A stretch of DNA of 64,000 nucleotides from contig CAIIXF020000001.1 in NCBI GenBank assembly GCA_903813345.2, positions 24,738,001 to 24,802,000 on the forward strand, given 5' to 3'. Position 1 is the first letter of the stretch. Every line of letters begins with the position of its first letter. This DNA is from Owenia fusiformis. Taxonomy: Eukaryota. Positions 30,467-64,000 of this stretch are shown here, in pieces. A program made the translations under genes and the position numbers. A model generated the notes under the pieces. That model was not told where the DNA came from. It did not search any database and was given only the letters and a program-made list of their open reading frames with translations.

Positions 30467-31437
30467 CTTCGTTCATTGCAAAAACATTGACATTTGCGTG
30501 TTTGTGACGCAGCGCCTTTTTGTTAGATCTTATATCTAGAAGCCCATCAGTTCAAAATTACCCTAGAAGACCTAACATATTTCCCCATGCCGTTTGTCTA
30601 AGCGATTCAATTGTAAACTTTCTCTTAATAAAACTTCCATATTTGTTTATTTTTCTAGTGAAAATCAGCTACACCCCCTCCGTTCGATTCTTCCGATCAC
30701 CGAGCGTGATTGTGGTATAACCACGATCTAGCTAGGTTTTAGGATTAAAATCTTTTTTTCTTTCACACAAGACTGATTGTAATGAATGTGATACCGAACC
30801 AAGAACTTGATAACCACAATTACACGCGTGTACCCATGCTGAATGCCTATAAATAAAGCTATTTAAGCGAAGATCATTCTGAATAGACTAGATGCGAGAA
30901 GAAATAATAATGATTTACATCATCAAATATTCAAATTTCAGTCAAAGTGATGTCATATTTGAAATCTACATGTAAAACTAGATCTAATAATATGGTTTCG
31001 AAAATTGTTTCTCAACTTTGAAATTTCTTTTTCTTTGAAAATGTGACTTCTAGTTCGGGTTAATTCCCCATAGACCGCATGTTACAAAATCACAAAAAGT
31101 GAAATATCTTTTCTTGTAATGGACAGATACTATTTTCTTTTACTGGACATATTTTTATTTGCATAACTATCAGATACATATAAGGGTTATATAAAAGTTG
31201 AACCACTAAAACAGATGTAATTCAAGTAACGGACGTTTTTTTCTCTGACCTGAAATTTGGGCCCCCCCCCCCCCTTGTTGGTTCCCAGATCCGCCCCTGT
31301 ATATGGTCCTACATGTACGCCTTATGGGCTCTTATGTGTATGGATCTATCACGTGACATTCAAGATGACATTTCTATATAAGCCTTATCTATCGCATGGA
31401 CACCACGTGACCCAATACCAATCAAATAAAAACCAAA

Positions 31438-31700
31438 ATTTTATCTTGACCTTTGGATGAGATTTTATAAAAAAATATTCATGAAAAATATCATCTTGTT
31501 AGAATTTGCACTGAAATTTTATCGTTTTATCTTGACCCTTGGATGGAATTGTATGAGAATAAATTATAAAAACCCGTCTTCATGTAAGGATTTTCACTTA
31601 AATTTGCTCGTTGTATCTTGTCCCTTGGATTGGATTTTATGAAAAAATATCATCATGTTAGGTATTGTTTTTCACGTTTCATCTTAACACTTTGATAAAA
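31438..31700. repeat. Degenerate ~80-88-bp tandem repeat, 3-4 copies
   Basis: tttatcttgacc.ttggatg near 31440 and 31527, tatcttgtcccttggatt near 31614; atgaaaaa(a)tatcatc.tgttag at 31481 and 31639. Confidence 0.65.
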
Positions 31701-32131
31701 TTTCATCGCAAATGAACTTTAAAAATATATATAACTCTTAAATAGGACTTTAATTCATGATCAATGTTTTATCAAAATGTATACTAGGTAGGATTCGCAC
31801 TCTAATTCGCTAATAAAATATCAACCCTAAGGTGGGGTTTCGTTAAAAAGAAAATATGTCGTGTCCAGAATCAAATAATTTGTCCAAAACCTTTAACGAT
31901 CCTGTTTATTGATTCACTGGCTTTGCGTTCACTACGTTGTGAAAAATATCACAATCTTAAACTCTCTATTGCTTGCGAAATACGGTGGTAACCAAGATAC
32001 AATGGCGTCAATATTCTTTTATAGGTACAAGTCAAACCGAACATTACGAAATTTTAGAATTAGATAAACGTATCTATTGTTTTCTATAACAATTCTACAG
32101 ATGTATGAGTGACATAAATGATATGTTACAG

Positions 32132-32268
32132 ATGTTGACGAATGTATTGAAAGCATCGATACCTGTTCACCATATGCAACATGTAGCAATACAGATGGTG
32201 GATACATATGTACCTGCCTGGATGGATACATAGACACATCGCAAGGAGGATATACAGGACGAGTTTGC
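32132..32268 (+). other. Calcium-binding EGF-like domain: DVDECIESIDTCSPYATCSNTDGGYICTCLDGYIDTSQGGYTGRVC
   Basis: Six Cys in EGF spacing, N-terminal D-x-D-E-C, the C-x-N-x-x-G-x-Y-x-C-x-C Asn-hydroxylation consensus, and a preceding phase-1 intron as is typical for EGF modules. Confidence 0.95.
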
Positions 32269-35200
32269 AAAGATGATGCCGCGACAACAGTGGTTGATCC
32301 AACTCGAGTTGATTCTTCAACAACAGCTGATACTGCAACAACTAAGGTCATCACTTTAACTACAGTGGCTGACACAACTACAGGTGATGTTACAACAACT
32401 GTAGCTGAGACAACTAAAGTGGTTGGCATGACTACAGCTGATGCTACAGAAGCAGTTTCTGATGGAACAACGGCTGATGTTTCAACAACAGTTGCTGACA
32501 TATCTACAGTGGTTGACGCAAGTACTGCAGATACTTCAGCAGATGATGCTTCAACTACAGTGGCTGACACAACTACAGATGATGCTACAACAACAGTTGC
32601 TGATGCAAGTACGGCTGATGTTACAACAACAGTAGCTAACACAACTACAGCAGCTGTTGCTAAAAGTACAGTGGCTGACACAACTACAGCTGATGCTACT
32701 ACAACAGTTCCTGATGCAACAAAGGCTGATGTTACAACAACAGTAGCCGACACAACTACAGTGGCTGACGCAACTACGGCAGATACTACAGCAGCTGATG
32801 CTACAACTACAGTGGCTGACAGAACTACAGCTGATGCTACAACAACAGTTGCTGATGCAACAACTGCTGATGTTACAACAACAGTTGCTGACATATCTAC
32901 AGTGGTTGACGCAAGTACTGCATATACTGCAGCAGATGATGCTTCAACTACAGTGGCTGACACAACTACAGATGATGCTACAACAACAGTTGCTGATGCA
33001 AGTACGGCTGATGTTACAACAACAGTAGCTAACACAACTAAAGTGGCTGACGCAACTACGGCAGATTCTACAGCAGCTGATACTACAACTATATTGCCTG
33101 ATACAACTACAGCTGATGCTACAACAACATTTGCTGATGCAAAAACGGCTGATGTTACAACAACAGTTGCATACACAACTACAGTGGCTGACACAACTAC
33201 GGCAGATTTTACAGCAGCTGATGCTACAACTACAGTGGCTGACAGAACTACAGCTGATGTTACAACAATAGTTGCTGACACAAAAACGGTTAATGTTAGA
33301 ACAACAGCTGCTGACACATTGAAATTGGCTGGCGCAATTACGGCAGATACTACATCAGCTGATGCTACAACTACAGTTGCTGATGCAAGAACGGCTGATG
33401 TTAAAACAACAGTAGCTGACACAACTACAGCGGCTGAAACAACTACTGCTGATGCTACAACAACAGATGCTGATGCAACAACGGCTGATGTTACAACAAC
33501 AGTTGCTGTTACAACTACAGTGACTGACGCAACTACGGCAGATACTACAGCAGCTGATGGTCTAACTACAGTGGCTGACACAACTATAGCTGATGCTACA
33601 ACAACAATTACTGATGCAACAACAGATGATGTTACAACAACAGTTGCTGACACAACTAAAGTGACTGACGCATCAACGGCAAATACTACAGCAGCTGGAG
33701 CTCTAACTACAGTGGCTGACACAACTACAGCTGATGCTACAACAACAGTTGCTGATGTAACTATAGTGGCTGACGCAACTACGGCAGACACTACAGCAAC
33801 TGATGCTACAAGTACAGTGGCTGACACAAATACAGCTGATACTACAACAACAGTTGCTGATGCAACAACGGCTGATGATACAACAACAGTTGCTGACACA
33901 ACTACAGTGGCTGAGACAACTACGGCAGATACTACAGCAGCTGATGCTACAAGTAATGTGGGTGACACAACTACAGCTGATGTTACAACAACAGTTGCTG
34001 ATGCAACAATGGCTGATGTTACAACAACAGTTGCTGACACAACTACAGTGGCTGACGCAACTACGGCAGATACTACAGCAGCTGATGCTACAACTACAGT
34101 GGCTGACACAAATACAGCTGATGCTACATCTACAGTTGCTGATGCAACAACGGCTGATGTTACAACAACAGTAGCTGACACAACTACAGTGGCTGAGACA
34201 ACTACGGCAGATACTACAACAGCTGATGCTACAACTACAGTGACTGACACAATTACAGCTGATGCTTCAACAACAGTTGCTGATGCAACAACGGCTGATG
34301 TTACAACAACAGTAGCTGACACAACTACAGTGGCTGACGCAACTACGGCAGATACTACAGCAGTTGATGCTACAAGTACAGTGGCAGACACAACTGCAGC
34401 TGATGCTACAACAACAGTTGCTGATGCAACATCGGCTGATGTTACAACAACAGTTGCTGACACAACTACGGTGGCTGACGCAACTACGGCAGATACTACA
34501 GTAGCTGATGCTACAAGTACAATGGCTGACACAAATACATCTGATGCTACAACAACAGTTGCTGATGCAACAACGGCTGATGTTACAACAACAGTAGCTG
34601 ACACAACTACAGTGTCTGACGCAACTACGGCAGATACTACAGCAGCTGATGCTACAAGTACAGTGGGTGACACAACTACAGCTGATGTTACAACAACAGT
34701 TGCTGATGCAACAATGGCTGATGTTACAACAACTACAGTTGATGCTGCAACAACAGTTGCTGATGCAACAACGGCTGATTTTACAACAACAGTTGCTGAC
34801 ACAACTACAGTGGCTGACACAACTACGGCAGATACTACAGCAGCTGTTGCTAAAAGTACAGTGGTTGACACAACTACAGCTGATGCTACTACAACAGTTC
34901 CTGATGCAACAAAGGCTGATGTTACAACAACAGTAGCCGACACAACTACAGTGGCTGACGCAACTACGGCAGATACTACAGCAGCTGATGCTACAACTAC
35001 AGTGGCTGACAGAACTACAGCTGATGCTACAACAACAGTTGCTGATGCAACAACTGCTGATGTTACAACAACAGTTGCTGACACAACTACAGTTGCTGGC
35101 GCGACTACGGCAGATACTACAGCAGCTGATGCTACAAGTACAGTGGCTGACACAACTACAGCTGATGCTACAAAAACAGTTGCTGATGCAACAATGGCTG

Positions 35201-38200
35201 ATGTTACAACAACAGTAGCTGAGACAACTACAGTGGCTGACGCACCTACGACAGATACTACAGCAGCTGATGCGACAAGTACAGTGGCTGACACAATTAC
35301 AGCTGATGTTACAACAACAGTTGCTGATGCAACAACGGCTGATGTTCCAACAACAGTAGCTGACACAACTACAGTGGTTGACGCAACTACGGCAGATACT
35401 ACAGCAGCTAATGCTACAAGTAATGTGGCTGACACAACTACAGCTGATGTTACAACAACAGTAGCTGAAACAACTACTGTGGCTGACGCAACTACGGCAG
35501 ATACTACAGCAGCTGATGCTCCAACTACAGTGGCTGACACAACTACAGCTGATGCTACAAAAACAGTTGCTGATGCAACAACGGCTGATGTTCCAACAAC
35601 AGTAGCTGACACAACTAGAGTGGTTGACGCAACTACGGCAGATACTACAGCAGCTAATGCTACAAGTAATGTGGCTGACACAACTACAGCTGATGTTACA
35701 ACACTAGTTACTGATGCAACAACGGCTGATGTTACAACAACAGTAGCTGAAACAACTACTGTGGCTGACGCAACTACGGCAGATACTACAGCAGCTGATG
35801 CTACAACTACAGTGGCTGACACAATTACAGCTGATGCTACAACAACAGTTGCTGGTCCAATAACTGCTGATGCTACAACTACAGTGACTGAGACAATTAC
35901 AGCTGATGCTACAACAACATTTGCTGATGCAACAACGGCTGATGTTACAACAACAGTAGCTGACACAACTACAGTGGCTGAAGCAACTACGGCAGATACT
36001 ACAGCAGATGATGCTACAACAACAGTGGCTGACACAACTACGGCAGATAATACAGCAGCTGATGCTACAAGTAATGTGGCTGACACAACTACAGCTAATG
36101 TTACAACACCAGTTGCTGATGCAACAACGACTGATGTTACAACAACAGTAGCTGACACAATTACAGTGGCTGACGCAACTACGGCAGATACTACAGCAGT
36201 TGATGCTACAACTACAGTGGATGACACAACTACAGCTGATGCTACAACAACAGTTGCTGATGCAACTATAGTGGGTGACGCAACTAAGGCAGATACTACA
36301 TTAGCTGATGCTACAAGTACAGTGGCTGACACAACTACAGATGATGCTACAACAACAGTTGCTGGTCCAACAACTGCTGATGCTACAACAACAGTAGCTG
36401 ACACAACTACAGTGGCTGACGCAACTACGGCAGATACTACAGCAGCTGATGCTACAACTACAGTGACTGACACACCTACAGCTGATGTTACAACAACAGT
36501 TGCTGACACAACTACAGTGGCTGACGCAACTACGGCAGATACTACAGCAGCTGATGCTACAACTACAGTGGCTGACACAACTGCAGCTGATGTTACAACA
36601 ACAGTTGCTGATGCAACAACGGCTGATGTTACAACAACAGTAGCTGACACAACTACAGAGGCTGACGCAACTACGGCAGATACTACAGCAGCTGATGCTA
36701 CAAGTACAGTGGCTGACACAACTACAGCTGATGCTACAACAACAGTTGCTGATGCAACAGTGGCTGATGTTACAACAACGGTAGCTGACACAACTACAGT
36801 GGCTGACGCAACTACGGCAGATACTACAGCAGCTGATGCTACAAGTACAGTGGCTGACACAACTACAGCTGATGCTACAGCAACAGTTGCTGGTGCAACA
36901 ACGGCTGATGTTACAACAACAGTAGCTGACACAACTATAGTGGCTGACGCAACTACGGCAGATACTACAGCAGCTGATGCTACAACTACAGTGGCTGACA
37001 CAACTGCAGCTGATGCTACAACAACAGTTGCTGATGCAACAACGGCTGATGTTACAACAACAGTTGCTGACACAACTACAATGGCTGACGCAACTACGGC
37101 AGATACTACAGCAGCTGATGCTACATCTACAGTGGCTGACACAACTGCAGCTGATGCTACAACAACAGTTGCTGACACAACTACAGTGGCTGACACAACT
37201 ACGGCAGATACTACAGCAGCTGATGGTACAAGTACAGTGGCTGACACAACTACAGATGATGCTACAGCAACAGTTGCTGCTGCAACAACGGCTGATGTTA
37301 CAACAACTGTTGCTGACACAACTACAGTGGCTGACGCAAGTACGGCAGATACTACAGCAGCTGATGCTACAATTACAGTGGCTGACACAACTGCAGCTGA
37401 TGCTACAACAACAGTTGCTGACACAACTACAGTGGCTGACACAACTACGGCAGATACTACAGCAGCTGATGCTACAAGTACATTGGCTGACACAACAACA
37501 TCTGATGCTACAATTACAGTTGCTGATGCAACAACGGCTGATGTTACAACAACAGTTGCTGACACAACTACAGTGGCTGACGCAACTACGGCAGATACTA
37601 CAGCAGCTGATGCTACAAGTACAGAGGCTGACACAACTTCAGCTGATGTTACAGCAACAGGTGCTGATGCAACAACGGCTGATGTTACAACAACAGTAGC
37701 TGACATAACTACATTTTCTGACGCAACTACGGCAGATACCACAGCAGCTGATGCTACAAGTACAGAGGGTGACAAAACTTCAGCTGATGTTACAGCAGCA
37801 GGTGCTGATGCAACAACGGCTGATGTTACAACAACAGTAGCTGACATAACTACATTTTCTGACGCAACTACGGCAGATACTACAGCAGCTGATGCTACAA
37901 GTACAGTTGCTGACACACCTACAGCTGATGCTACAACAACAGTTGCTGATGCAACAACGGCTGATGTTACAAAAACAGTTGCTGACACAACTACAGTGGC
38001 TGATGCAACTACGGCAGATACTACAGCAGCTGATGCTACAACTACAGTGACTGACACAACTACAGCTGATGCTACAACAACAGTTGCTGACACAACTACA
38101 GTGGCTGACACAACTGCAGCTGATGCTACAACAACAGTTGCTGATGCAACAACGGCTGATGTTACAACAACAGTAGCTGACAAAACTACAGTGGCTGACG

Positions 38201-41200
38201 CAACTACGGCAGATACAACAGCAGCTAATGCTACAACTACAGTGGCTGACAAAACTACAGCTTATGCTTTAACAACAGTTGCTGATGCAACAACGGCTGA
38301 TGTTACAACAACAGTTGCTGACACAACTACAGTGGCTGACGCAACTACGGCAGATACTACAGCAGCTGATGCTACATCTACAGTGGCTGACACAACTGCA
38401 GCTGATGCTACAACAACAGTTGCTGACACAACTACAGTGGCTGACACAACTACGGCAGATACTACAGCAGCTGATGCTACAAGTACAGTGGCTGACACAA
38501 CTACAGCTGATGCTACAACAACAGTTGCTGATGCAACAACGGCTGATGTTACAACAACAGTAGCTGACACAACTACAGAGGCTGAAGCAACTACGGCAGA
38601 TACAACAGCAGCTGATGCTACAGGTACAGTGGCTGACACAACTACAGCTGATGCTACAACAACAGTTGCTGATGCAACAGCGGCTGATGTTACAACAACG
38701 GTAGCTGACACAACTACAGTGGCTGACGCAACTACGGCAGATACTACAGCAGCTGATGCTACAACTACAGTGACTGACACAACTACAGCTGATGCTACAA
38801 CAACAGTTGCTGATGCAACAACGGCTGATGTTACAACAACAGTTGGTGACACAACTACAGTGGCTGATGCAACTACGGCAGATACTACAGCAGCTGATGG
38901 TACAAGTACAGTGGCTGACACAACTACAGCTGATGCTACAGCAACAGTTGCTGCTGCAACAACGGCTGATGTTACAACAACTGTTGCTGACACAACTACA
39001 GTGGCTGACGCAAGTAAGGCAGATACTACAGCAGCTGATGCTACAAGTACAGTGGCTGACACAACTGCAGCTGATGCTACAACAACAGTTGCTGACACAA
39101 CTACAGTGGCTGACACAACTACGGCAGATACTACAGCAGCTGATGCTACAAGTACATTGGCTGACACAACAACAGCTGATGCTACAATTACAGTTGCTGA
39201 TGCAACAACGGCTGATGTTACAACAACAGTTGCTGACACAACTACATTTTCTGACGCAACTACGGCAGATACTACAGCAGCTGATGCTACAAGTACAGTT
39301 GCTGACACACCTACAGTGGCTGACGCAACTACGGCAGATACTACAGCAGCTGATGCTACAACTACAGTGGCTGACAAAACTGCAGCTGATGCTACAACAA
39401 CAGTTGCTGATGCAACAACGGCTGATGTTACAAAAACAGTTGCTGACACAACTACAGTGGCTGACGCAACTTCGGCAGATACGACAGCAGCTAATGCTAC
39501 AACTACAGTGGCTGACAAAACTACAGCTTATGCTTTAACAACAGTTGCTGATGCAACAACGGCTGATGTTACAACAACAGTTGCTGACACAACTACAGTG
39601 GCTGACGCAACTACGGCAGATACTACAGCAGCTAATGCTACAACTACAGTGGCTGACACAACTGCAGCTGATGCTACAACAACAGTTGCTGATGCAACAA
39701 CGGCTGATGTTACAACAACAGTAGCTGACACAACTACAGTGGCTGACGCAACTTCGGCAGATACAACAGCAGCTAATGCTACAACTACAGTGGCTGACAA
39801 AACTACAGCTTATGCTTTAACAACAGTTGCTGATGCAACAACGGCTGATGTTACAACAACAGTTGCTGACACAACTACAGTGGCTGACGCAACTACGGCA
39901 GATACTACAGCAGCTGATGCTACATCTACAGTGGCTGACACAACTGCAGCTGATGCTACAACAACAGTTGCTGACACAACTACAGTGGCTGACACAACTA
40001 CGGCAGATACTACAGCAGCTGATGCTACAAGTACAGTGGCTGACACAACTACAGCTGATGCTACAACAACAGTTGCTGATGCAACAAAGGCTGATGTTAC
40101 AACAACAGTAGCTGACACAACTACAGAGGCTGAAGCAACTACGGCAGATACTACAGCAGCTGATGCTACAACTACATCGGCTGACACAACTGCAGCTGAT
40201 GCTACAACAACAGTTGCTGATGCAACAACGGCTGATGTTACAACAACAGTTGCTGACACAACAACAGTGGCTGACGCAACTACGGCAGATACTACAGCAG
40301 CTGATGCTACAAGTACAGTGGCTGACACAACTACAGCTGATGCTACAACAACAGTTGCTGATGCAACAACGGCTGATGTTACAACAACAGTAGCTGACAT
40401 AACTACAGTGGCTGACGCAACTACGGCAGATACTACAGCAGCTGTTGCTACAACTACACCAGCTGATGCTACAACTACAGTGGCTGACACAACTGCAGCT
40501 GATGCTACAACAACAGTTGCTTATGCAACAACGGCTGATGTTACAACAACAATTGCTGACACAGCTACAGAGGCTGACGCAACTACTGCAGATACTACAG
40601 CAGCTGATGCTACAACTACAGTGGATGACACAACTGTAGCTGATGCTACAACAACAGTTGCTGATGCAACAGCGGCTGATGTTACAACAACAGTTGCTGA
40701 CACAACTACAGTGGCTGACGCAACTACGGCAGATACTACAGCAGCTGATGCTACAACTACAGTGGCTGACACAACTACAGCTTATGCTTTAACAACAGTT
40801 GCTGATGCAACAACGGCTGATGTTACAACAACAGTAGCTGACATAACTACAGTGGCTGACGCAACTACGGGAGATACTACAGCAGCTGTTGCTACAACTA
40901 CAGTGGCTGACACAACTGCAGCTGATGCTACAACAACAGTTGCTGATGCAACAACGGCTGATGTTACAACAACAGTTGCTGACACAACTACAGTGGCTGA
41001 CGCAACTACGGCAGATACTACAGCAGCTGATGCTACAACTACAGTGGCTGACACAACTGCAGCTGATGCTACAACAACAGTTGCTGATGCAACAACGGCT
41101 GATGTTACAACAACAGTAGCTGACAAAACTACAGTGGCTGACGCAACTACGGCAGATACTACAGCAGCTAATGCTACAACTACAGTGGCTGACACAACTG

Positions 41201-44200
41201 CAGCTGATGCTACAACAACAGTTGCTGATGCAACAACGGCTGATGTTACAACAACAGTAGCTGACACAACTACAGTGGCTGACGCAACTTCGGCAGATAC
41301 AACAGCAGCTAATGCTACAACTACAGTGGCTGACAAAACTACAGCTTATGCTTTAACAACAGTTGCTGATGCAACAACGGCTGATGTTACAACAACAGTT
41401 GCTGACACAACTACAGTGGCTGACGCAACTACGGCAGATACTACAGCAGCTGATGCTACATCTACAGTGGCTGACACAACTGCAGCTGATGCTACAACAA
41501 CAGTTGCTGACACAACTACAGTGGCTGACACAACTACGGCAGATACTACAGCAGCTGATGCTACAAGTACAGTGGCTGACACAACTACAGCTGATGCTAC
41601 AACAACAGTTGCTGATGCAACAACGGCTGATGTTACAACAACAGTAGCTGACACAACTACAGAGGCTGAAGCAACTACGGCAGATACTACAGCAGCTGAT
41701 GCTACAAGTACAGTGGCTGACACAACTACAGCTGATGCTACAACAACAGTTGCTGATGCAACAGCGGCTGATGTTACAACAACGGTAGCTGACACAACTA
41801 CAGTGGCTGACGCAACTACGGCAGATACTACAGCAGCTGATGCTACAACTACAGTGACTGACACAACTACAGCTGATGCTACAACAACAGTTGCTGATGC
41901 AACAACGGCTGATGTTACAACAACAGTTGGTGACACATCTACAGTGGCTGACGCAACTACGGCAGATACTACAGCAGCTGATGGTACAAGTACAGTGGCT
42001 GACACAACTACAGCTGATGCTACAGCAACAGTTGCTGCTGCAACAACGGCTGATGTTACAACAACTGTTGCTGACACAACTACAGTGGCTGACTCAAGTA
42101 AGGCAGATACTACAGCAGCTGATGCTACAAGTACAGTGGCTGACACAACTGCAGCTGATGCTACAACAACAGTTGCTGACACAACTACAGTGGCTGACAC
42201 AACTACGGCAGATACTACAGCAGCTGATGCTACAAGTACATTGGCTGACACAACAACAGCTGATGCTACAATTACAGTTGCTGATGCAACAACGGCTGAT
42301 GTTACAACAACAGTTGCTGACACAACTACATTTTCTGACGCAACTACGGCAGATACTACAGCAGCTGATGCTACAAGTACAGTTGCTGACACACCTACAG
42401 TGGCTGACGCAACTACGGCAGATACTACAGCAGCTGATGCTACAACTACAGTGGCTGACAAAACTGCAGCTGATGCTACAACAACAGTTGCTGATGCAAC
42501 AACGGCTGATGTTACAAAAACAGTTGCTGACACAACTACAGTGGCTGACGCAACTACGGCAGATACTACAGCAGCTGATGCTACAAGTACAGTGGCTGAC
42601 ACAACTACAGCTGATACTACTACAACAGTTGCTGATGCAACAACGGCTGATGTTACAACAACAGTAGCTGACACAGCTACAGTGGCTGATGCGACTACGG
42701 CAGATACTACAGCAGCTGATGCTACAACTACAGTGGCTGACACAACTACAGCTGATGCTACAACAACAGTTGCTGATGCAACAACGGCTGATGTTACAAG
42801 AACAGTTGCTGACACAACTCCAGTGGCTGACGCAACTACGGCAGATACTACAGCAGCTAATGCTACAAGTACAGTGGCTGACAAAACTACCGCTGATGCT
42901 ACAGCAACAGTTGCTGATGCAACAACGGCTGATGTTACAACAACAGTAGCAGACACAACTACAGTGGCCGACGCAACTACAGCAGATACTGCAGAAGCTG
43001 ATGCTACAACTACAGTGGCTGACACACCTACAGCTGATGCTACAACAACAGTTGCTGATGCAACAACGGCTGATGTTACAACAACAGTTGCTGACACAAC
43101 TACAGTGGCTGACGCAACTACGGCAGATACTACAGCAGCTGATGCTACAAGTACAGTGGCTGACACAACTACAGCTGATGCTACAGCAACAGTTACTGAT
43201 GCAACAACGGCTGATGTTACAACAACAGTTGCTGACACAACTACAGTGGCTTACGCAACTACAGCAGATACTACAGCAGCTCATGCTACAAGTACAGTGG
43301 CTGACACAACTACAGCTGATGCTACAGCAACAGTTGCTGATGCAACAACGGCTGATGCTACAACAACAGTTGCTGATGCAACAACGGCTGATGTTACAAC
43401 AACAGTAGCTGACAAAACTACAGTGGCTGACGCAACTACGGCAGATACTACAGCAGCTAATAATACAACTACAGTGGCTGACACAACTGCAGCTGGTGCT
43501 ACAACAACAGTTGCTGATGCAACAACGGCTGATGTTACAACAACAGTAGCTGACACAACTACAGTGGCTGACGCAACTTCGGCAAATACAACAGCAGCTG
43601 ATGCTACAACTACAGTGGCTGACACAACTGCAGCTTATGCTACAACAACAGTTGCTGATGCAACAACGGCTGATGTTACAACAACAGTTGCTGACACAAC
43701 TACAGAGGCTGACGCAACTACGGCAGATACTACAGCAGCTGATGCTACAACTACAGTGGCTGACACAACTGTAGCTGATGTTACAACAACAGTTGCTGAC
43801 ACAACTACAGTGGCTGACGCAACTACGGCAGATACTACAGCAGCTGATGCTACAAGTACAGTGGCTGACACAACTACAGCTGATGCTACAACAACAGTTG
43901 CTGATGCAACAACGACTGATCTAACAACAACAGTTGCTGACACAACTACAGTGGCTGATGCAACTTCGGCAGATACAACAGCAGCTGATGCTACAACTAC
44001 AGTGGCTGACACAACTACAGCTGATGCTACAACAACAGTTGCTGATGCAACAACGGCTGATCTAACAACAACAGTTGCTGACACAACTACAGTGGCTGAT
44101 GCAACTACGGCAGATACTACAGCAGCTGATGCTACAACTACAGTGGCTGACACAACTACAGCTGATGCTACAACAACAGTTGCTGATGCAACAACGGCTG

Positions 44201-50200: not shown

Positions 50201-53200
50201 CAGCAGCTGATGCTACAAGTACAGTGGCTGACACAACTACAGCTGATGCTACAACAACAGTTGCTGATGCAACAACGGCTGATGTTACAACAACAGTAGC
50301 TGACACAACTACAGTGGCTGATGCAACTTCGGCAGATACAACAGCAGCTGATGCTACAACTACAGTGGCTGACACAACTACAGCTGATGCTACAACAACA
50401 GTTGCTGATGCAACAACGGCTGATGTTACAACAACACTTGCTGACACAACTACAGTGGCTGATGCAACTACGGCAGATACTACAGCAGCTGATGCTACAA
50501 CTACAGTGGCTGACACAACTACAGCTGATGCTACAACAACAGTTGCTGATGCAACAACGGCTGATGTTACAACAACAGTAGCTGACACAACTACAGTGGC
50601 TGATGCAACTTCGGCAGATACAACAGCAGCTGATGCTACAACTACAGTGGCTGACACAACTACAGCTGATGCTACAACAACAGTTGCTGATGCAACAACG
50701 GCTGATGTTACAACAACACTTGCTGACACAACTACAGTGGCTGATGCAACTACGGCAGATACTACAGCAGCTGATGCTACAACTACAGTGGCTGACACAA
50801 CTACAGCTGATGCTACAACAACAGTTGCTGATGCAACAACGGCTGATGTTACAACAACAGTAGCTGACACAACTACAGTGGCTGATGCGACTACGGCAGA
50901 TACTACAGCAGCTGATGCTACAACTACAGTGGCTGACACAACTACAGCTGATGCTACAACAACAGTTGCTGATGCAACAACGGCTGATGCTACAACAACA
51001 GTTGGTGACACAACTACAGAGGCTGACGCAACTACGGCAGATACTACAGCAGCTGATGCTACAAGTACAGTGGCAGACACAACTACAGCTGATGCTACAG
51101 CAACAGTTGCTGGTGCAACAACGGCTGATGTTACAACAACAGTAGCTGACACAACTATAGTGGCTGACGCAACTACGGCAGATAATACAGCAGCTGATGC
51201 TACAACTACAGTGGCTGACACAACTGCAGCTGATGCTACAACAACAGTTGCTGATGCAACAACGGCTGATGTTACAACAACAGTTGCTGACACAACTACA
51301 GTGGCTGATGCGACTACGGCAGATACTACAGAAGCTGATGCTACAACTACAGTGGCTGACACAACTACAGTGGCTGACGCAACTACGGCAGATACTACAG
51401 CAGCTGATGCTACAAGTACAGTGGCTGACACAACTACAGCTGATGCTACAACAACAGTTGCTGATGCAACAACGGCTGATGTTACAACAACAGTAGCTGA
51501 CACAACTACAGTGGCTGATGCAACTTCGGCAGATACAACAGCAGCTGATGCTACAACTACAGTGGCTGACACAACTATAGCTGATGATACAACAACAGTT
51601 GGTGACACAACTACAGAGGCTGACGCAACTACGGCAGATACTATAGCATCTGATGCTACAACTACAGTGTCTGACACAACTGCAGCTGATGCTACAACAA
51701 CAGTTGCTGATGCAACAACGGCTGACACTACAACTACAGTGGTTGACACAACTGCAGCTGATGCTACAACAACAGTTGCTGATGGAACAACGGCTGATGT
51801 TACAACAACAGTTGCTGACACAACTACAGTGGCTGACGCAACTACTGCAGATACTACAGCAGCTGATGCTACAAGTACAGTGGCTGACACAACTGCAGCT
51901 GATGCTACAACAACAGTTGCTGATGCAACAACGGCTGATGTTACAACAACAGTGGCTGACACAACTACAGTGGCTGACGCAACTACGGCAGATAGGTCAG
52001 CAGCTGATAATACAACTACAGTGGCTGACACAACTACAGCTGATGCTACAACAACAGTTGTTGATGCAACAACGGCTGATGTTACAACAATAGTAGCAGA
52101 CACAACTACAGTGGCTGAAGCAACTACGGCAGATACTACAGCAGCTGATGCTACAACTACAGTGGCTGACACACCTACAGCTGATGCTACAACAACAGTT
52201 GCTGATGCAACAACGGCTGATGTTACAACAACAGTTGCTGACACAACAACAGTGGCTGACACAACTACGGCAGATACTACAGCAGCTGATGCTACAAGTA
52301 CAGTGGCTGACACAACTACAGCTGATGCTACAGCAACAGTTACTGATGCAACAACGGCTGATGTTACAACAACAGTTGCTGACACAACTACAGTGGCTGA
52401 CGCAACTACGGCAGATACTACAGCAGCTGATGCTACAAGTACAGTTGCTGACACAACTACAGCTGATGCTACAACAACAGTTGCTGATGCAACAACGGCT
52501 GATGTTACAACAACAGTAGCTGATACAACTACAGTCACTAACACAAATACGGCAGTTACTACAGCAGCTGATGCTACAACTACAGTGGATGACACAACTA
52601 CAGCTGATGCTAGAACAACAGTTGCTGATGCAACAACGGCTGATGTTACAACAACAGTAGCTGACACAACTACAGTGGCTGACGCAACTACGGCAGATAC
52701 TACAGCAGCTGATGCTACAACTACAGTGGTTGACACAACTGCAGCTGATGCTACAACAACAGTTGCTGATGCAACAACGGCTGATGTTGCAAAAACAGTA
52801 GATGACATAACTACAGTGGCTGACGCAACTACGGCAGATACTGCAGCAGCTGTTGCTACAACTACAGCAGCTGATGCTACAACTAAAGTGGCTGACACAA
52901 CTGTAGCTGATGCTACAACAACAGTTGCTGATGCAACAACGGCTGGTGTTACAACAACAGTTGCTGACACAACTACAGTGGCTGACGCAACTACGGCAGA
53001 TACTACAGCAGCTGATGCTACAACTACAGTGGCTGACACAACTACAGCTGATGCTACAACAACAGTTGCTGATGCAACAACGGCTGATGTTACAACAACA
53101 GTAGCTGACACAACTACAGTGGCTGATGCGACTACGGCAGATACTACAGAAGCTGATGCTACAACTACAGTGGCTGACACAACTACAGTGGCTGACGCAA

Positions 53201-56200
53201 CTACGGCAGATACTACAGCAGCTGATGCTACAAGTACAGTGGCTGACACAACTACAGCTGATGCTACAACAACAGTTGCTGATGCAACAACGGCTGATGT
53301 TACAACAACAGTAGCTGACACAACTACAGTGGCTGATGCAACTTCGGCAGATACAACAGCAGCTGATGCTACAACTACAGTGGCTGACACAACTCCAGCT
53401 GATGCTACAACAACAGTTGCTGATGCAACAACGGCTGATGTTACAACAACACTTGCTGACATAACTACAGTGGCTGATGCAACTACGGCAGATACTACAG
53501 CAGCTGATGCTACAACTACAGTGGCTGACACAACTACAGCTGATGCTACAACAACAGTTGCTGATGCAACAACGGCTGATGTTACAACAACAGTAGCTGA
53601 CACAACTACAGTGGCTGATGCAACTACGGCAGATACTACAGCAGCTGATGCTACAACTACAGTGGCTGACACAACTACAGCTGATGCTACAACAACAGTT
53701 GCTGATGCAACAACGGCTGATGTTACAACAACAGTAGCTGACACAACTACAGTGGCTGATGCGACTACGGCAGATACTACAGCAGCTGATGCTACAACTA
53801 CAGTGGCTGACACAACTACAGCTGATGCTACAACAACAGTTGCTGATGCAACAACGGCTGATGCTACAACAACAGTTGGTGACACAACTACAGAGGCTGA
53901 CGCAACTACGGCAGATACTACAGCAGCTGATGCTACAAGTACAGTGGCAGACACAACTACAGCTGATGCTACAGCAACAGTTGCTGGTGCAACAACGGCT
54001 GATGTTACAACAACAGTAGCTGACACAACTATAGTGGCTGACGCAACAACGGCAGATAATACAGCAGCTGATGCTACAACTACAGTGGCTGACACAACTG
54101 CAGCTGATGCTACAACAACAGTTGCTGATGCAACAACGGCTGATGTTACAACAACAGTTGCTGACACAACTACAGTGGCTGACGCAACTACGGCAGATAC
54201 TACAGCAGCTGATGCTACATCTACAGTGGCTGACACAACTGCAGCTGATGCTAAAACAACAGCAGCTGATGCTACAATTACAGTGGCTGACACAACTACA
54301 GCTGATGCTACAACAACAGTTGCTGATGCAACAACGGTTGATGTTACAACAACAGTTGCTGACAGAACAACGGTGGCTGACGCAACTACGGCAGATACTA
54401 CAGCAGCTGATGCTACAAGTACAGTGGTTGACACAACTACAGCTGATGCTACAGCAACAGTTGCTGATGCAACAACGGCTGATGTTACAACAACAGTTGC
54501 TGACACAACTACAGTGGCTGACGCAACTACGGCAGATACTACAGCAGCTGATGCTACAAGTACAGTGGCTGACACAACTACAGCTGATGCTACAACAACA
54601 GTTGCTGATGCAACAACGGCTGATGTTACAACAACAGTAGCTGACACAACTACAGTGGCTGATGCAACTTCGGCAGATACAACAGCAGCTGATGCTACAA
54701 CTACAGTGGCTGACACAACTACAGCTGATGCTACAACAACAGTTGCTGATGCAACAACGGCTGATGTTACAACAACACTTGCTGACACAACTACAGTGGC
54801 TGATGCAACTACGGCAGATACTACAGCAGCTGATGCTACAACTACAGTGGCTGACACAACTACAGCTGATGCTACAACAACAGTTGCTGATGCAACAACG
54901 GCTGATGTTACAACAACAGTAGCTGACACAACTACAGTGGCTGATGCGACTACGGCAGATACTACAGAAGCTGATGCTACAACTACAGTGGCTGACACAA
55001 CTACAGCTGATGCTACAACAACAGTTGCTGATGCAACAACGGCTGATGCTACAACAACAGTTGGTGACACAACTACAGAGGCTGACGCAACTACGGCAGA
55101 TACTACAGCAGCTGATGCTACAAGTACAGTGGCAGACACAACTACAGCTGATGCTACAGCAACAGTTGCTGGTGCAACAACGGCTGATGTTACAACAACA
55201 CTTGCTGACACAACTACAGTGGCTGATGCAACTACGGCAGATACTACAGCAGCTGATAATACAACTACAGTGGCTGACACAACTACAGCTGATGCTACAA
55301 CAACAGTTGCTGATGCAACAACGGCTGATGATACAACAACAGTAGCTGACACAACTTCAGTGGCTGACGCAACTACGGCAGATACTACAGCAGCTGATGC
55401 TACAAGTACAGTGGCAAACACAACTACAGCTGATGCTACAGCAACAGTTGCTGGTGCAACAACGGCTGATGTTACAACAACAGTAGCTGACACAACTATA
55501 GTGGCTGACGCAACTACGGCAGATAATACAGCAGCTGATGCTACAACTACAGTGGCTGACACAACTGCAGCTGATGCTACAACAACAGTTGCTGATGCAA
55601 CTACAGTGGCTGACGCAACTACGGCAGATACTACAGCAGCTGATGCTACATCTACAGTGGCTGACACAACTGCAGCTGATGCTACAACAACAGTGGCTGA
55701 CACAACTACAGTGGCTGACGCAACTACGGTAGATACTACAGCAGCTGATGCTACAACTACAGTGGCTGACACAACTGCAGCTGATGCTACAACAACAGTT
55801 GCTGATGCAACAACGGCTGATGTTACAACAGTTGCTGAAACAACTACAGTGGCTGACGCAACTACGGCAGATACTACAGCAGCTGATGCTACAATTACAG
55901 TGGCTGACACAACTACAGCTGATGCTACAACAACAGTTGCTGATGCAACAACGGCTGATGTTACAACAACAGTTGCTGACAGAACAACGGTGGCTGACGC
56001 AACTACGGCAGATACTACAGCAGCTGATGCTACAAGTACAGTGGTTGACACAACTACAGCTGATGCTACAGCAACAGTTGCTGATGCAACAACGGCTGAT
56101 GTTACAACAACAGTTGCTGACACAACTACAGTGGCTGACGCAACTACGGCAGATACTACAGCAGCTGATGCTACAAGTACAGTGGCTGACACAACTACAG

Positions 56201-59200
56201 CTGATGCTACAACAACAGTTGCTGATGCAACAACGGCTGATGTTACAACAACACTTGCTGACACAACTACAGTGGCTGACGCAACTACGGTAGATACTAC
56301 AGCTGCTGATGCTACAACTACAGTGGCTGACACAACTGCAGCTGATGCTACAACAACAGTTGCTGATGCAACAACGGCTGATGTTACAACAGTTGCTGAA
56401 ACAACTACAGTGGCTGACGCAACTACGGCAGATACTACAGCAGCTGATGCTACAATTACAGTGGCTGACACAACTACAGCTGATGCTACAACAACAGTTG
56501 CTGATGCAACAACGGCTGATGTTACAACAACAGTTGCTGACAGAACAACGGTGGCTGACGCAACTACGGCAGATTCTACAGCAGCTGATGCTACAAGTAC
56601 AGTGGTTGACACAACTACAGCTGATGCTACAGCAACAGTTACTGATGCAACAACGGCTGATGTTACAACATCAGTTGCTGACACAACTACAGTGGCTGAC
56701 ACAACTACGGCAGATACTACAGCAGCTGATGCTACAAGTACAGTGGCTGACACAACTACAGCTGATGCTACAGCAACAGTTGCTGCTGATGCTACAACTA
56801 CAGTGGTTGACACAACTGCAGCTGATGCTACAACAACAGTTGCTGATGGAACAACGGCTGATGTTACAACAACAGTTGCTGACACAACTACAGTGGCTGA
56901 CGCAACTACTGCAGATACTACAGCAGCTGATGCTATAAGTACAGTGGCTGACACAACTGCAGCTGATGCTACAACAACAGTTGCTGATGCAACAACGGCT
57001 GATGTTACAACAACAGTTGCTGACACAACTACAGTGGCTGACGCAACTTCGGCAGATACAACAGTAGCTGATGCTACAACTACAGTGGCTGACACAACTA
57101 CAGCTGATGTTACAACAACAGTTGCTGATGCAACAACGGCTGATGCTACAACAACAGTTGCTGGTGCAACAACGGCTGATGTTACAACAACAGTAGCTGA
57201 CACAACTATAGTGGCTGACGCAACTACGGCAGATAATACAGCAGCTGATGCTACAACTACAGTGGCTGACACAACAGCAGATGATGCTACAACAACAGTT
57301 GCTGATGCAACAACGGCTGATGTTACAACAACAGTTGCTGACACAACTACAGTGGCTGACGCAACTACGGCAGATACTACAGCAGCTGATGCTACATCTA
57401 CAGTGGCTGACACAACTGCAGCTGATGCTACAACAACAGTGGCTGACACAACTACAGTGGCTGACGCAACTACGGTAGATACTACAGCAGCTGATGCTAC
57501 AACTACAGTGGCTGACACAACTGCAGCTGATGCTACAACAACAGTTGCTGATGCAACAACGGCTGATGTTACAACAGTTGCTGAAACAACTACAGTGGCT
57601 GACGCAACTACGGCAGATACTACAGCAGCTGATGCTACAATTACAGTGGCTGACACAACTACAGCTGATGCTACAACAACAGTTGCTGATGCAACAACGG
57701 CTGATGTTACAACAACAGTTGCTGACAGAACAACGGTGGCTGACGCAACTACGGCAGATACTACAGCAGCTGATGCTACAAGTACAGTGGTTGACACAAC
57801 TACAGCTGATGCTACAGCAACAGTTACTGATGCAACAACGGCTGATGTTACAACAACAGTTGCTGACACAACTACAGTGGCTGACACAACTACGGCAGAT
57901 ACTACAGCAGCTGATGCTACAAGTACAGTGGCTGACACAACTACAGCTGATGCTACAGCAACAGTTGCTGCTGATGCTACAACTACAGTGGTTGACACAA
58001 CTGCAGCTGATGCTACAACAACAGTTGCTGATGGAACAACGGCTGATGTTACAACAACAGTTGCTGACACAACTACAGTGGCTGACGCAACTACTGCAGA
58101 TACTACAGCAGCTGATGCTACAAGTACAGTGGCTGACACAACTGCAGCTGATGCTACAACAACAGTTGCTGATGCAACAACGGCTGATGTTACAACAACA
58201 GTGGCCGACACAACTACAGTGGCTGACGCAACTACGGCAGATACTACAGCAGCTGATGCTACAAGTACAGTGGCTGACACAACTACAGCTGATGCTACAG
58301 CAACAGTTACTGATGCAACAACGGCTGATGTTACAACAACAGTTGCTGACACAACTACAGTGGCTGACGCAACTTCGGCAGATACAACAGTAGCTGATGC
58401 TACAACTACAGTGGCTGACACAACTACAGCTGATGTTACAACAACAGTTGCTGATGCAACAACGGCTGATGCTACAACAACAGTTGCTGATGCAACAACG
58501 GCTGATGTTACAACAACAGTAGCTGACACAACTACAGTGGCTGACGCAACTACGGCAGATACTACAGCAGCTGATGCTACAAGTACAGTGGCTGACACAA
58601 CTACAGCTGATGCTACAGCAACAGTTGCTGCTGATGCTACAACAACAGTGGCTGACACAACTACAGTGGCTGACGCAACTACGGTAGATACTACAGCAGC
58701 TGATGCTACAACTACAGTGGCTGACACAACTGCAGCTGATGCTACAACAACAGTTGCTGATGCAACAACGGCTGATGTTACAACAGTTGCTGAAACAACT
58801 ACAGTGGCTGACGCAACTACGGCAGATACTACAGCAGCTGATGCTACAAGTACAGTGGCTGACACAACTAAAGCTGATGCTACAGCAACAGTTGCTGATG
58901 CAACAACGGCTGATGTTACAACAACAGTAGCTGACATAACTACAGTGGCTGACGCAACTACGGCAGATACTACAGCAGCTGATGCTACAACTACAGTGGC
59001 TGACACAACTGCAGCTGATGCTACAACTACAGTGGCTGACACAACTGCAGCTGATGCTACAACAACAGTTGCTGATGCAACAACGGCTGATGTTACAACA
59101 ACAGTTTCTGACACAACTACAGTGGCTGACGCAACTACGGCAGATACTACAGCAGCTGATGCTACAACTACAGTGGCTGACACAACTGCAGCTGATGCTA

Positions 59201-62200
59201 CAACAACAGTTGCTCATGCAATAACGGCTGATGTTACAACAACAGTTGCTGACACAACTACAGTGGCTGACACAACTACGGCAGATACTACAGCAGCTGA
59301 TGCTACAAGTACAGTGGCTGACACAACTACAGCTGATACTACAACAACAGTTGCTGATGCAACAACGGCTGATGTTACAACAACAGTAGCTGACACAACT
59401 ACAGTGGCTGATGCGACTACGGCAGATACTACAGGAGCTGATGCTACAACTACAGTGGCTGACACAACTACAGCTGATGCTACAACAACAGTTGCTGATG
59501 CAACAACGGCTGATGCTACAACAGCAGTTACTGACACAACTACAGTGGCTGACGCAACTACGGCAGATACTACAGCAGCTGATGCTACAAGTACAGTGGC
59601 TGACACAACTACCGCTGATGCTACAGCAACAGTTGCTGATGCAACAACGGCTGATGTTACAACAACAGTAGCAGAGACAACTACAGTGGCTGACGCAACT
59701 ACGGCAGATACTACAGCAGCTGATGCTACAACTACAGTGGCTGACACACCTACAGCTGATGCTACAACAACAGTTGCTGATGCCACAACGGCTGATGTTA
59801 CAACAACAGTTGCTGACACAACTACAGTGGCTGACGCAACTACTGCAGATACTACAGCAGCTGATGCTACAAGTACAATGGCTGACACAACTACAGCTGA
59901 TGCTACAACAACAGTTGCTGATGCAACAACGGCTGATGTTACAACAACAGTAGCTGACACAACTACAGTGGCTGACGCAACTACGGCAGATACTACAGCA
60001 GCTGATGCTACAACTACAGTGGCTGACACAACTACAGCTGATGCTACAACAACAGTTGCTGATGCAACAACGGCTGATGTTACAACCACAGTTGCTGACA
60101 CAACTACAGTGGTTGACGCAACTACGGCAGATACTACAGCAGCTGATGCTACAACTACATTGGCTGACACAACTGCAGCTGATGCTACAACAACAGTTGC
60201 TGATGCAACATCGGCTGATGTTACAACAACAGTAGCTGACATAACTACAGTGGCTGATGGAACTACGGCAGATACTACAGCAGCTGATGCTACAACTACA
60301 GTGGCTGACACAACTGCAGCTGATGCTACAACTACAGTGGCTGACACAACTGCAGCTGATGCTACAACAACAGTTGCTGATGCAACAACGCCTGATGTTA
60401 CAACAACAGTTTCTGACACAACTACAGTGGCTGATGCAACTACGGCAGATACTACAGCAGCTGATGCTACAACTACAGTGGCTGACACAACTACAGCTGA
60501 TGCTACAACAACAGTTGCTGATGCAACAACGGCTGATGTTACAACAACACTAGCTGACACAACTACAGTGGCTGACGCAACTACGGCAGATAGGTCAGCA
60601 GCTGATAATACAACTACAGTGGCTGACACAACTACAGCTGATGCTACAACAACAGTTGCTGATGCAACAACGGCTGATGTTACAACAACAGTAGCAGACA
60701 CAACTACAGTGGCTGAAGCAACTACGGCAGATACTACAGCAGCTGATGCTACAACTACAGTGGCTGACACACCTACAGCTGATGCTACAACAACAGTTGC
60801 TGATGCAACAACGGCTGATGTTACAACAACAGTTGCTGACACAACAACAGTGGCTGACGCAACTACGGCAGATACTACAGCAGCTGATGCTACAAGTACA
60901 GTGGCTGACACAACTACAGCTGATGCTACAGCAACAGTTACTGATGCAACAACGGCTGATGTTACAACAACAGTTGCTGACACAACTACAGAGGTTGACT
61001 CAACTACGGCAGATACTACAGCAGCTGATGCTACAACTACAGTGGCTGACACAACTGCAGCTGATGCTACAACAACAGTTGCTGATGCAACATCGGCTGA
61101 TGTTACAACAACAGTAGCTGACATAACTACAGTGGCTGATGCAACTACGGCAGATACTACAGCAGCTGATGCTACAACTACAGTGGCTGACACAACTGCA
61201 GCTGATGCTACAACTACAGTGGCTGACACAACTGCAGCTGATGCTACAACAACAGTTGCTGATGCAACAACGCCTGATGTTACAACAACAGTTTCTGACA
61301 CAACTACAGTGGCTGATGCAACTACGGCAGATACTACAGCAGCTGATGCTACAACTACAGTGGCTGACACAACTACAGCTGATGCTACAACAACAGTTGC
61401 TGATGCAACAACGGCTGATGTTACAACAACACTATCTGACACAACTACAGTGGCTGACGCAACTACGGCAGATACTACAGCAGCTGATAATACAACTACA
61501 GTGGCTGACACAACTACAGCTGATGCTACAACAACAGTTGCTGATGGAACAACGGCTGATGTTACAACAACAGTTGCTGACACAACTACAGTGGCTGACG
61601 CAACTACTGCAGATACTACAGCAGCTGATGCTACAAGTACAGTGGCTGACACAACTGCAGCTGATGCTACAACAACAGCTGCTGATGCAACAACGGCTGA
61701 TGTTACAACAACAGTGGCTGACACAACTACAGTGGCTGACGCAACTACGGCAGATAGGTCAGCAGCTGATAATACAACTACAGTGGCTGACACAACTACA
61801 GCTGATGCTACAACAACAGTTGCTGATGCAACAACGGCTGATGTTACAACAACAGTAGCAGACACAACTACAGTGGCTGAAGCAACTACGGCAGATACTA
61901 CAGCAGCTGATGCTACAACTACAGTGGCTGACACACCTACAGCTGATGCTACAACAACAGTTGCTGATGCAACAACGGCTGATGTTACAACAACAGTTGC
62001 TGACACAACAACAGTGGCTGACGCAACTACGGCAGATACTACAGCAGCTGATGCTACAAGTACAGTGGCTGACACAACTACAGCTGATGCTACAGCAACA
62101 GTTACTGATGCAACAACGGCTGATGTTACAACAACAGTTGCTGACACAACTACAGAGGTTGACTCAACTACGGCAGATACTACAGCAGCTGATGCTACAA

Positions 62201-64000
62201 CTACAGTGGCTGACACAACTGCAGCTGATGCTACAACAACAGTTGCTGATGCAACATCGGCTGATGTTACAACAACAGTAGCTGACATAACTACAGTGGC
62301 TGATGCAACTACGGCAGATACTACAGCAGCTGATGCTACAACTACAGTGGCTGACACAACTGCAGCTGATGCTACAACTACAGTGGCTGACACAACTGCA
62401 GCTGATGCTACAACAACAGTTGCTGATGCAACAACGCCTGATGTTACAACAACAGTTTCTGACACAACTACAGTGGCTGATGCAACTACGGCAGATACTA
62501 CAGCAGCTGATGCTACAACTACAGTGGCTGACACAACTACAGCTGATGCTACAACAGCAGTTGCTGATGCAACAACGGCTGATGTTACAACAACACTATC
62601 TGACACAACTACAGTGGCTGACGCAACTACGGCAGATACTACAGCAGCTGATAATACAACTACAGTGCCTGACACAACTACAGCTGATGCTACAACAACA
62701 GTTGCTGATGCAACAACGGCTGATGATACAACAACAGTAGCTGACACAACTACAGTGGCTGACGCAACTACGGCAGATACTACAGCAGCTGATGCTACAA
62801 CTACAGTGGCTGACACAACTACAGCTGATGCTACAACAACAGTTGCTGATGCAACAACGGCTGATGTTACAACAACAGTTGCTGACACAACTACAGAGGT
62901 TGACGCAACTACGGCAGATACTATAGCAGCTGATGCTACAACTACAGTGGCTGACACAACTGCAGCTGATGCTACAACAACAGTTGCTGATGCAACAACG
63001 GCTGACACTACAACTACAGTGGTTGACACAACTGCAGCTGATGCTACAACAACAGTTGCTGATGGAACAACGGCTGATGTTACAACAACAGTTGCTGACA
63101 CAACTACAGTGGCTGACGCAACTACTGCAGATACTACAGCAGCTGATGCTACAACTACAGTGGCTGACACACCTACAGCTGATGCTACAACAACAGTTGC
63201 TGATGCAACAACGGCTGATGTTACAACAACAGTTGCTGACACAACAACAGTGGCTGACGCAACTACGGCAGATACTACAGCAGCTGATGCTACAAGTACA
63301 GTGGCTGACACAACTACAGCTGATGCTACAGCAACAGTTACTGATGCAACAACGGCTGATGTTACAACAACAGTTGCTGACACAACAACAGTGGCTGACG
63401 CAACTACGGCAGATACTACAGCAGCTGATGCTACAAGTACAGTGGCTGACACAACTACAGCTGATGCTACAGCAACAGTTACTGATGCAACAACGGCTGA
63501 TGTTACAACAACAGTTGCTGACACAACAACAGTTGCTGACACAACTACAGTGGCTGACGCAACTACGGCAGATACTACAGCAGCTGATGCTACAAGTACA
63601 GTTGCTGACACAACTACAGCTGATGCTACAACAACAGTTGCTGATGCAACAACTGCTGATGTTACAACAACAGTAGCTGATACAACTACAGTCACTAACA
63701 CAAATACGGCAGTTACTACAGCAGCTGATGCTACAACTACAGTGGATGACACAACTACAGCTGATGCTAGAACAACAGTTGCTGATGCAACAACGGCTGA
63801 TGTTACAACAACAGTAGCTGACACAACTACAGTGGCTGACGCAACTACGGCAGATACTACAGCAGCTGATGCTACAACTACAGTGGTTGACACAACTGCA
63901 GCTGATGCTACAACAACAGTTGCTGATGCAACAACGGCTGATGTTGCAAAAACAGTAGATGACATAACTACAGTGGCTGACGCAACTACGGCAGATACTA
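32132..64000 (+). CDS. Giant coding exon C (3'-truncated by the window): Ca-binding EGF domain followed by >10,500 aa of Thr/Ala/Asp/Val repeat
   Basis: Frame +1 reads (D)VDECIESIDTC...CKDDAATTVVDPTRVDSSTTADTATT... and is still in the same frame at 63961 (GAC ATA ACT ACA GTG GCT). All SATVVV-type antisense shadow ORFs keep one register across the exon (no frameshift), and the track lists no stop-terminated ORF in this frame. Confidence 0.92.
32320..64000 (+). repeat. Coding tandem array C; same 141-bp / 47-aa consensus as array A
   Basis: Same sub-repeats and position-specific codons as array A; degenerate over ~32320-34000, very homogeneous downstream; 282-bp (two-unit) offsets visible (shadow ORFs at 50321 and 50603). 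Confidence 0.95.

Follow-up and report, generated by a model that had tools for sequence, protein, structure and literature searches.

Can a single uninterrupted coding exon of an animal gene exceed 31 kb, and if so, what keeps it open? The question is raised by a stretch of genomic DNA from Owenia fusiformis (NCBI GenBank assembly GCA_903813345.2, contig CAIIXF020000001.1, positions 24,738,001 to 24,802,000 of the forward strand), here called the window, which comprises 64,000 nt and contains two blocks of tandem repeats, array 1 and array 2, in long open frames. A first-pass annotation had described array 2 as a single coding exon longer than 31.8 kb and array 1 as another longer than 19.6 kb. 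The locus is interpreted here, with a probability of roughly 0.7, as belonging to a giant gene of the animal for a mucin-type glycoprotein, with each block forming one uninterrupted coding exon for a very acidic repeat that is nearly free of proline.

Extent of the Open Blocks

Array 2 (32132–64000, + strand) spans 31,869 nt, and its frame from 32134 continues through 10,622 codons to 63999 without a stop; the other two + strand frames hold 156 and 1,569 stops, and the three − strand frames 1,585, 41, and 10. In array 1 (1–19679, + strand), the frame from position 3 is likewise free of stops over 6,559 codons, with 119, 933, 30, 19, and 991 stops in the remaining five. The list of open reading frames (ORFs) gives the two blocks as 3..19694, open at the window start, and 32290..63999, open at the window end, both on the + strand. 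The GC content is 0.46–0.48 throughout both blocks as opposed to 0.32–0.37 in between, and the minimum in any 100-nt window inside the arrays is 0.38–0.39, compared with 0.26 in a putative 125-nt intron and a mean of 0.34 in the 12.1-kb gap that separates the blocks. Among windows of 100 residues, only three of 130 in array 1 and four of 211 in array 2 fall below 90% Thr, Ala, Asp, Val, and Ser, all of them at array edges, and these composition windows revealed no non-repeat islands within either array. Thus, with no stop and with GC never at intron level, array 2 does run for more than 31.8 kb without a frame change or AT-rich break, as had been claimed, and array 1 for more than 19.6 kb, open to 19679. 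The start assigned to array 2 also stands, since 32132 is the first base after the sole AG (32130–32131) between the last in-frame stop (32119–32121) and the first EGF cysteine. The features of the locus are as follows, in window coordinates.

1..19679, + strand: array-1 coding exon; its 5′ end lies beyond the window, and it ends at the donor GAG/GTAATG in phase 0.
To about 19313, + strand: regular part of array 1, about 135 copies of a 141-nt unit, followed by degenerate repeats.
From about 19521 to 19679, + strand: non-repeat tail of array 1, probably the N-terminal part of a SEA domain.
19680..19804, + strand: putative intron of 125 nt (GTAATG...TTTTAG, GC 0.26), suggested by its splice motifs and by the frame resuming into the SEA match.
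19805..20024, + strand: SEA exon, 73 codons and a final G, covering the C-terminal two thirds of SEA; donor G/GTAAAT, phase 1.
20025..32131, + strand: gap of 12,107 nt, most likely one intron; GC 0.34, repeat-filled, ending in TTACAG.
32132..32270, + strand: EGF module starting the array-2 exon, calcium-binding, with six cysteines; it opens in phase 1 with AT.
32271..32539, + strand: degenerate Thr/Ala/Asp/Val ramp leading from the EGF module into the regular array.
32540..64000, + strand: regular array 2, about 220 × 141 nt; its 3′ end lies beyond the window.

Repeat Unit and Composition of the Encoded Protein

Tandem Repeats Finder assigns 18–19313 and 32540–64000 to one array family with a base period of 18 nt, a unit of 141 nt (47 codons), and higher-order periods at 282 and 423 nt. 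The unit is present in 135.4 copies in array 1 and about 220 copies in array 2. When translated, the blocks consist of 41–42% Thr, 26–27% Ala, 16% Asp, 10% Val, 1.6–1.9% Ser, and 0.3% Pro, the commonest protein sub-units being ATTAD, TTAAD, ATTTVAD, VTTTVAD, TTTVAD, and TTTAD. A long tandem-repeat domain dominated by Thr and Ser, as in mucin-domain glycoproteins, therefore extends over 6,559 and 10,622 residues, and the place of Pro as the regular residue without a hydroxyl group is filled by Asp, at 16%. By itself, array 2 accounts for at least 10,622 residues, a peptide of about 1.0 MDa that includes 4,360 Thr and 1,741 Asp residues, and array 1 for at least 6,559.

Exon Borders and Domains

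The array-2 exon opens with AT-GTT-GAC-GAA-TGT directly after the TTACAG acceptor, and its first 33 residues match the Pfam family EGF_CA (E=5.8e-8, 33.3 bits, cut-off 27), with EGF_3 also matching the same module (E=2.6e-7, 31.2 bits, cut-off 28.5). The EGF-like module characteristic of SEA-type tethered mucins is accordingly present, and so is a SEA domain beside the mucin domain. The latter is matched by Pfam SEA over profile positions 38–99 of 106 (E=4.6e-4, 20.7 bits, below the cut-off), and phmmer returned exactly one match to the SEA exon among 1.84 billion representatives (E=4.2e-9). This sole match is a protein of 2,175 aa with 13 Pfam SEA domains (1.7e-211), a transmembrane (TM) segment, and a tail; the exon aligns to the core of its SEA repeats and is 28% identical over one domain. 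Among Protein Data Bank sequences, the SEA exon had no matches. The tail of the array-1 exon, judged by its position, probably encodes the N-terminal part of the same SEA domain. At 19865–19885, the SEA exon reads G-S-I-L at the site of the self-cleavage motif in the alignment, where cleaving SEA domains carry G/S-V-V-V, and the module may thus be self-cleaving. Parts of gel-forming mucins (VWD, C8, TIL, or cystine knot) had no Pfam match in 32 translated pieces, the ends of the gene lying outside the window.

Splicing Signals Within the Arrays

An exon of this length raises the question, already put by the first-pass annotation, of whether cryptic internal splicing shortens the mRNA. In that case, the arrays would be transcribed but pieces would be removed in frame, leaving effective exons that are much shorter. 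GT and AG dinucleotides do occur in the thousands (1,237 GT and 2,057 AG in array 2), the removal of multiple-of-three lengths would be invisible to frame analysis, and the RNA data do not contradict such events. However, donors of the form GTRAG[TAG] number 0 in array 1 and 2 in array 2, and no AG in either array has at least 11 pyrimidines among the 15 upstream positions, compared with 38 in the 12.1-kb gap. The longest pyrimidine run inside the arrays is 5–6 nt, the sense strand contains 34% A and 19.5% T, and the composition stays at exon level. The answer, on sequence grounds, is that the arrays offer the spliceosome almost no signals. Internal splicing appears unlikely, and the explanation that the giant exons are in effect much shorter is correspondingly improbable. 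Both blocks look like single coding exons in their anatomy, each with a canonical edge site, an in-frame EGF or SEA module, one open frame, and no internal intron signal.

Coding Evidence Beyond the Open Frame

The unit codons ACN, GCN, GTN, and GAY all lie at least two substitutions from a stop. When the observed differences were shuffled within codon columns (500 shuffles), 1.0 stops were expected in array 2 and 0.8 in array 1, and 33% and 45% of the shuffles, respectively, contained none. A stop-free frame is therefore uninformative, as the unit codons are built two or more changes away from a stop. This leaves room for a silent relic, that is, a mucin-derived minisatellite or unexpressed pseudogene that stays open only through its stop-proof unit and its expansion in multiples of three. 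Consistent with such a relic are the depth of 0 in two RNA runs, the permutation result, and the fact that slippage at the unit level is inherently in frame.

Indels and differences were instead counted in a wraparound alignment made codon by codon against the 47-codon consensus. It contains 264 in-frame indel runs in array 2 and 213 in array 1, with 0 frame breaks in 51 kb. About 340 of these 477 runs are only one or two codons long and are thus not whole sub-units, which speaks against a relic expanding by entire units. Differences from the consensus at codon positions 1, 2, and 3 number 390, 472, and 753 in array 2 and 266, 309, and 611 in array 1. Synonymous and non-synonymous codon differences stand at 659 and 823 in array 2 and at 510 and 548 in array 1, set against a neutral synonymous share for this codon mix of about 28% by our own arithmetic estimate. 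In addition to this third-position excess, the splice sites and domain exons are intact at both junctions. Frame-keeping and the third-position and synonymous excesses together speak for coding, and a silent relic is rather implausible.

Reads and Assembly

Sequencing reads were placed on 19300–33000 from the RNA runs X15 and X16, from X4, a run of unknown kind, and from the DNA run X18. Depth values for X4 add up thousands of repeat contigs, and no conclusion on expression was drawn from them. In X18, depth reaches 66 on 32553–33000 as opposed to 1.1–4.0 on apparently single-copy bins, a ratio of roughly 17–60, and 150-nt reads simulated from the whole window and placed at ≥95% identity predict a 25-fold pile-up on the same segment. 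The comparison is a rough one, since the X18 individual is divergent, the arrays extend past the window, and paralogues are possible.

Arrays 1 and 2 are only 83–84% alike in any register and thus are not duplicates of one another. Within the arrays, the best other copy is 87–96% identical for 22 of 24 2-kb tiles, and accurate long reads can place copies of such diversity. More recent duplicates also exist: 14001–18000 in array 1 contains an internal duplicate of about 1.9 kb at 98–99% identity, and 60552–62555 in array 2 contains an exact 840-nt repeat at a spacing of 1,164 nt, the longest exact repeat. These internal duplicates are signs of ongoing unequal exchange.

The same duplicates bear on whether the arrays have been over-expanded or mis-joined in assembly, as long tandem arrays are error-prone and, among the joints listed, DNA reads show "skips" and "goes back" inside 32594–32987. 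Against such an artefact stand the divergence of the tile copies (at most 96% identity for 22 of 24) and the X18 pile-up, which brackets the predicted value, and an intact frame over 51 kb would be unlikely for a chimeric assembly. The check by read depth that had been suggested for over-assembly reveals no depth deficit in X18, with a pile-up that fits the assembled copy number. An assembly artefact is thus very unlikely.

Points Weighing Against Giant Mucin Exons

Several observations weigh against interpreting the locus as a pair of giant mucin exons. Among them are the RNA runs X15 and X16, of which about 6% each was read, with a depth of 0 on 19300–19756, 32096–32552, and 32553–33000 apart from a value of 0.47 in one column; the gene is without visible expression in these two samples. 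In addition, three of the X4 contigs listed cross 19679/19680, 20024/20025, and 32131/32132 unspliced at a depth of 6–7, and these contigs are DNA or unspliced RNA. The description of the blocks as single coding exons agrees with their edges, frame, and composition, whereas transcription and splicing were not seen in the two RNA runs, whose depth is 0 on parts of the exons.

The protein itself departs from expectation in that the proline-richness of mucin PTS (proline, threonine, and serine) domains is lacking, with Pro accounting for 23 of 6,559 and 33 of 10,622 residues. No counterpart of the repeat was found in protein libraries, although these word-indexed, length-limited searches are weak evidence of absence. 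In such searches, neither the EGF module with its linker, queried against longer proteins, nor a 9,999-residue query scored on residues 1–400 had a match, and a query of 500 array residues returned a single marginal one (E=9.2e-4). The Pfam score of the SEA exon lies under the curated cut-off of 26.4 bits, and the array-1 tail, the presumed N-terminal part of SEA, matches no Pfam family and reaches only E=34 against P0001 in BLASTP. Neither a signal peptide nor an end of the gene lies in the window, and no single TM helix or cytoplasmic tail was recognised in it, the gene running past both window ends.

The coding evidence is subject to similar cautions. Missing stops were rejected as proof of selection, given that the permutation expects only about one in any case. 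The differences counted are not independent events, because the copies share ancestry. Moreover, the third-position excess appears in the codon-level alignment only, the nucleotide-level wraparound alignment yielding 0.041, 0.057, and 0.051 for the three positions; this second alignment was discarded for its compensating 1–2-nt gaps, an artefact of the internal sub-repeats. With these points taken into account, the two blocks are, as far as their sequence can indicate, giant mucin exons that are uninterrupted and very probably coding.

One Gene or Two

The SEA exon and the array-2 exon meet in phase 1 on both sides of the 12.1-kb gap. The final G of the SEA exon (20024) and the AT that opens the EGF exon combine to encode Asp, giving Asp-Val-Asp-Glu-Cys, and calcium-binding EGF modules usually open with D-x-D-E-C. 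This junction suggests that both arrays probably belong to one gene arranged as array - SEA - 12.1-kb intron - EGF - array, which would then hold at least 17,254 codons within the window and be open at both ends.

It is also possible, if doubtful, that two neighbouring paralogous mucin genes lie here, one running from array 1 through SEA to its end and the other beginning on small exons in the gap and continuing through EGF into array 2. The arrays differ by 16–17%, as diverged paralogues would, and no read joining the SEA and EGF exons was seen in the runs placed. Shuffled extracellular genes often have symmetric phase-1 modules, so the phase match is weak proof. A looser filter also finds ten hydrophobic 21-residue stretches on the + strand of the gap, of the sort that AT-rich sequence yields by chance. 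On the other hand, the SEA donor and the EGF acceptor each need a partner and fit one another exactly. The gap offers little material for the missing ends, as no Pfam domain was found at the curated cut-off in 28 gap ORFs and none of the 153 + strand ORFs passed a strict TM filter. The best hydrophobic stretch (22638–22700) was rejected as a TM exon, as it runs into a stop and sits in a local duplicate. The single-gene arrangement is therefore kept as the likelier one.

Large parts of the gap consist of high-copy or locally duplicated repeats, with X18 depth up to about 1,600, and no Rfam family was found in it. The segment 29354–30724 is a very high-copy element with internal 144–145-nt tandem duplicates, an X18 depth of about 1,500–1,600 compared with about 2 for single-copy sequence, and a strong strand bias in RNA (e.g., 305 vs. 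18 in X15). It matched neither Rfam nor Pfam and appears to be an abundant repeat, transcribed and non-autonomous. Another transcribed repeat of high copy number occupies 20671–22041; a variant in which the four letters CTTG replace 20804–21195 is present in both RNA and DNA runs and thus represents another genomic copy or allele rather than splicing. X18 depth is at or near 0 on 24784–26154, 26612–27068, and 27526–28439, with neighbouring bins covered. These stretches are therefore absent or strongly diverged in that individual, and the putative intron is structurally polymorphic. An inverted repeat at 24254–24395 has 69-nt arms that are 4 nt apart and 75% complementary, and DNA reads place an "opposite strands" joint at 24283/24364.

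A Proposed Origin and Function

The arrays may have grown by unequal exchange among 141-nt higher-order units built of sub-units of 15, 18, and 21 nt. As all of these are multiples of three, changes in length would keep the frame, and codons at least two substitutions from a stop would help to keep it open. On a T-poor strand with short pyrimidine runs and few donors, nothing inside the arrays would rival the splice sites at their edges. The product, as predicted from the translated repeat, would be a densely O-glycosylated, polyanionic brush of micrometre length. By analogy with cell-surface mucins, the SEA and EGF modules would punctuate this brush, and its role may lie in the glycocalyx or in mucus. 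In this proposal, we infer splicing, expression, glycosylation, and the one-gene structure, while the open frame, the repeat with its composition, the matches to domains, and the motifs for splicing are observed directly.

A bolder extension, which must be regarded as unlikely, is that a single gene continues past both window ends, with the arrays as consecutive super-modules, each comprising a giant mucin exon, SEA, and EGF. Such a gene would have more than 100 kb of coding sequence and a product larger than titin, with a proline-free polyaspartate/threonine repeat absent from the protein libraries searched.

Relation to Known Giant Repeat Exons

Human MUC12, MUC3A, and MUC17 have SEA and EGF modules beside their mucin domain. 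Like the Owenia locus, they carry a giant Thr-rich variable number tandem repeat (VNTR) on one central exon, according to the excerpts of the literature on which the comparisons with published genes in this section are based. The locus is set apart from these genes by its content of Pro (0.3%) and Asp (16%), with no sequence kinship found between the repeats. Unlike in human tethered mucins, its EGF module stands upstream of a second giant array rather than beside a membrane anchor, and neither a TM segment nor a tail was recognised within the window. MUC16-like multi-SEA proteins resemble the locus in that SEA modules alternate with mucin sequence in a very large protein. However, the spacers of the locus, unlike those of the MUC16-like 13-SEA match, are arrays of 20 to more than 30 kb, and an EGF module is added.

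Balbiani-ring products are salivary secretory proteins with another type of repeat and without SEA or EGF. The genes BR1, BR2.1, BR2.2, and BR6 contain an unbroken stretch of coding sequence that matches the present one in size. These Chironomus Balbiani-ring genes are about 40 kb long and have four introns; their tandem-repeat coding centre measures about 35 kb (PMC4192438). These centres were not recovered in the assembly cited there, whereas the Owenia locus is fully sequenced within the window. In the spider gene AgSp1, 42,270 bp of repeats are coded by two exons of similar size, as verified by long genomic and RNA reads (PMC6553539). It thus shares with the locus a repeat coding sequence in two giant exons, but it is a spidroin, a family that has terminal domains of its own, and its exons of about 21 kb each are shorter than array 2. 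For humans, the excerpted text of a 2026 preprint on the mucin pangenome gives MUC12 proteins of 4,677 to 23,080 aa and a MUC4 VNTR allele of 27,843 bp (PMC13345508).

Literature searches on invertebrate mucins with SEA and EGF and on giant exons yielded no precedents besides these three papers. Against these precedents, the ceiling of 17–22 kb that the first-pass annotation had given for known exons is outdated, as human MUC12, the Balbiani-ring genes, and spider AgSp1 reach a similar scale. Its further suggestion that array 2 is among the longest coding exons holds insofar as the exon stands in the top tier; it is not without precedent, given MUC12, the MUC4 allele, and the Balbiani-ring genes. 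The locus belongs to an already known class of giant repeat exons and differs from its other members by the chemistry of its repeat and by the EGF module upstream of the second array.

Significance

The locus overturns nothing: mucins as a rule carry giant VNTR exons, and still larger examples have now been reported from humans. If transcribed as read here, array 2 would be among the longest uninterrupted animal coding exons sequenced, at 31.9 kb or more with its end not reached, and upwards of 17,000 residues may be encoded in these 64 kb. Its mucin chemistry of Thr, Ala, Asp, and Val without Pro would be unlike that of vertebrate PTS domains. The locus would also serve as a fully resolved case, diverse in sequence, of the way in which an exon of giant size may be kept safe, through stop-distant codons, sub-units in multiples of a triplet, and a strand poor in splice signals.

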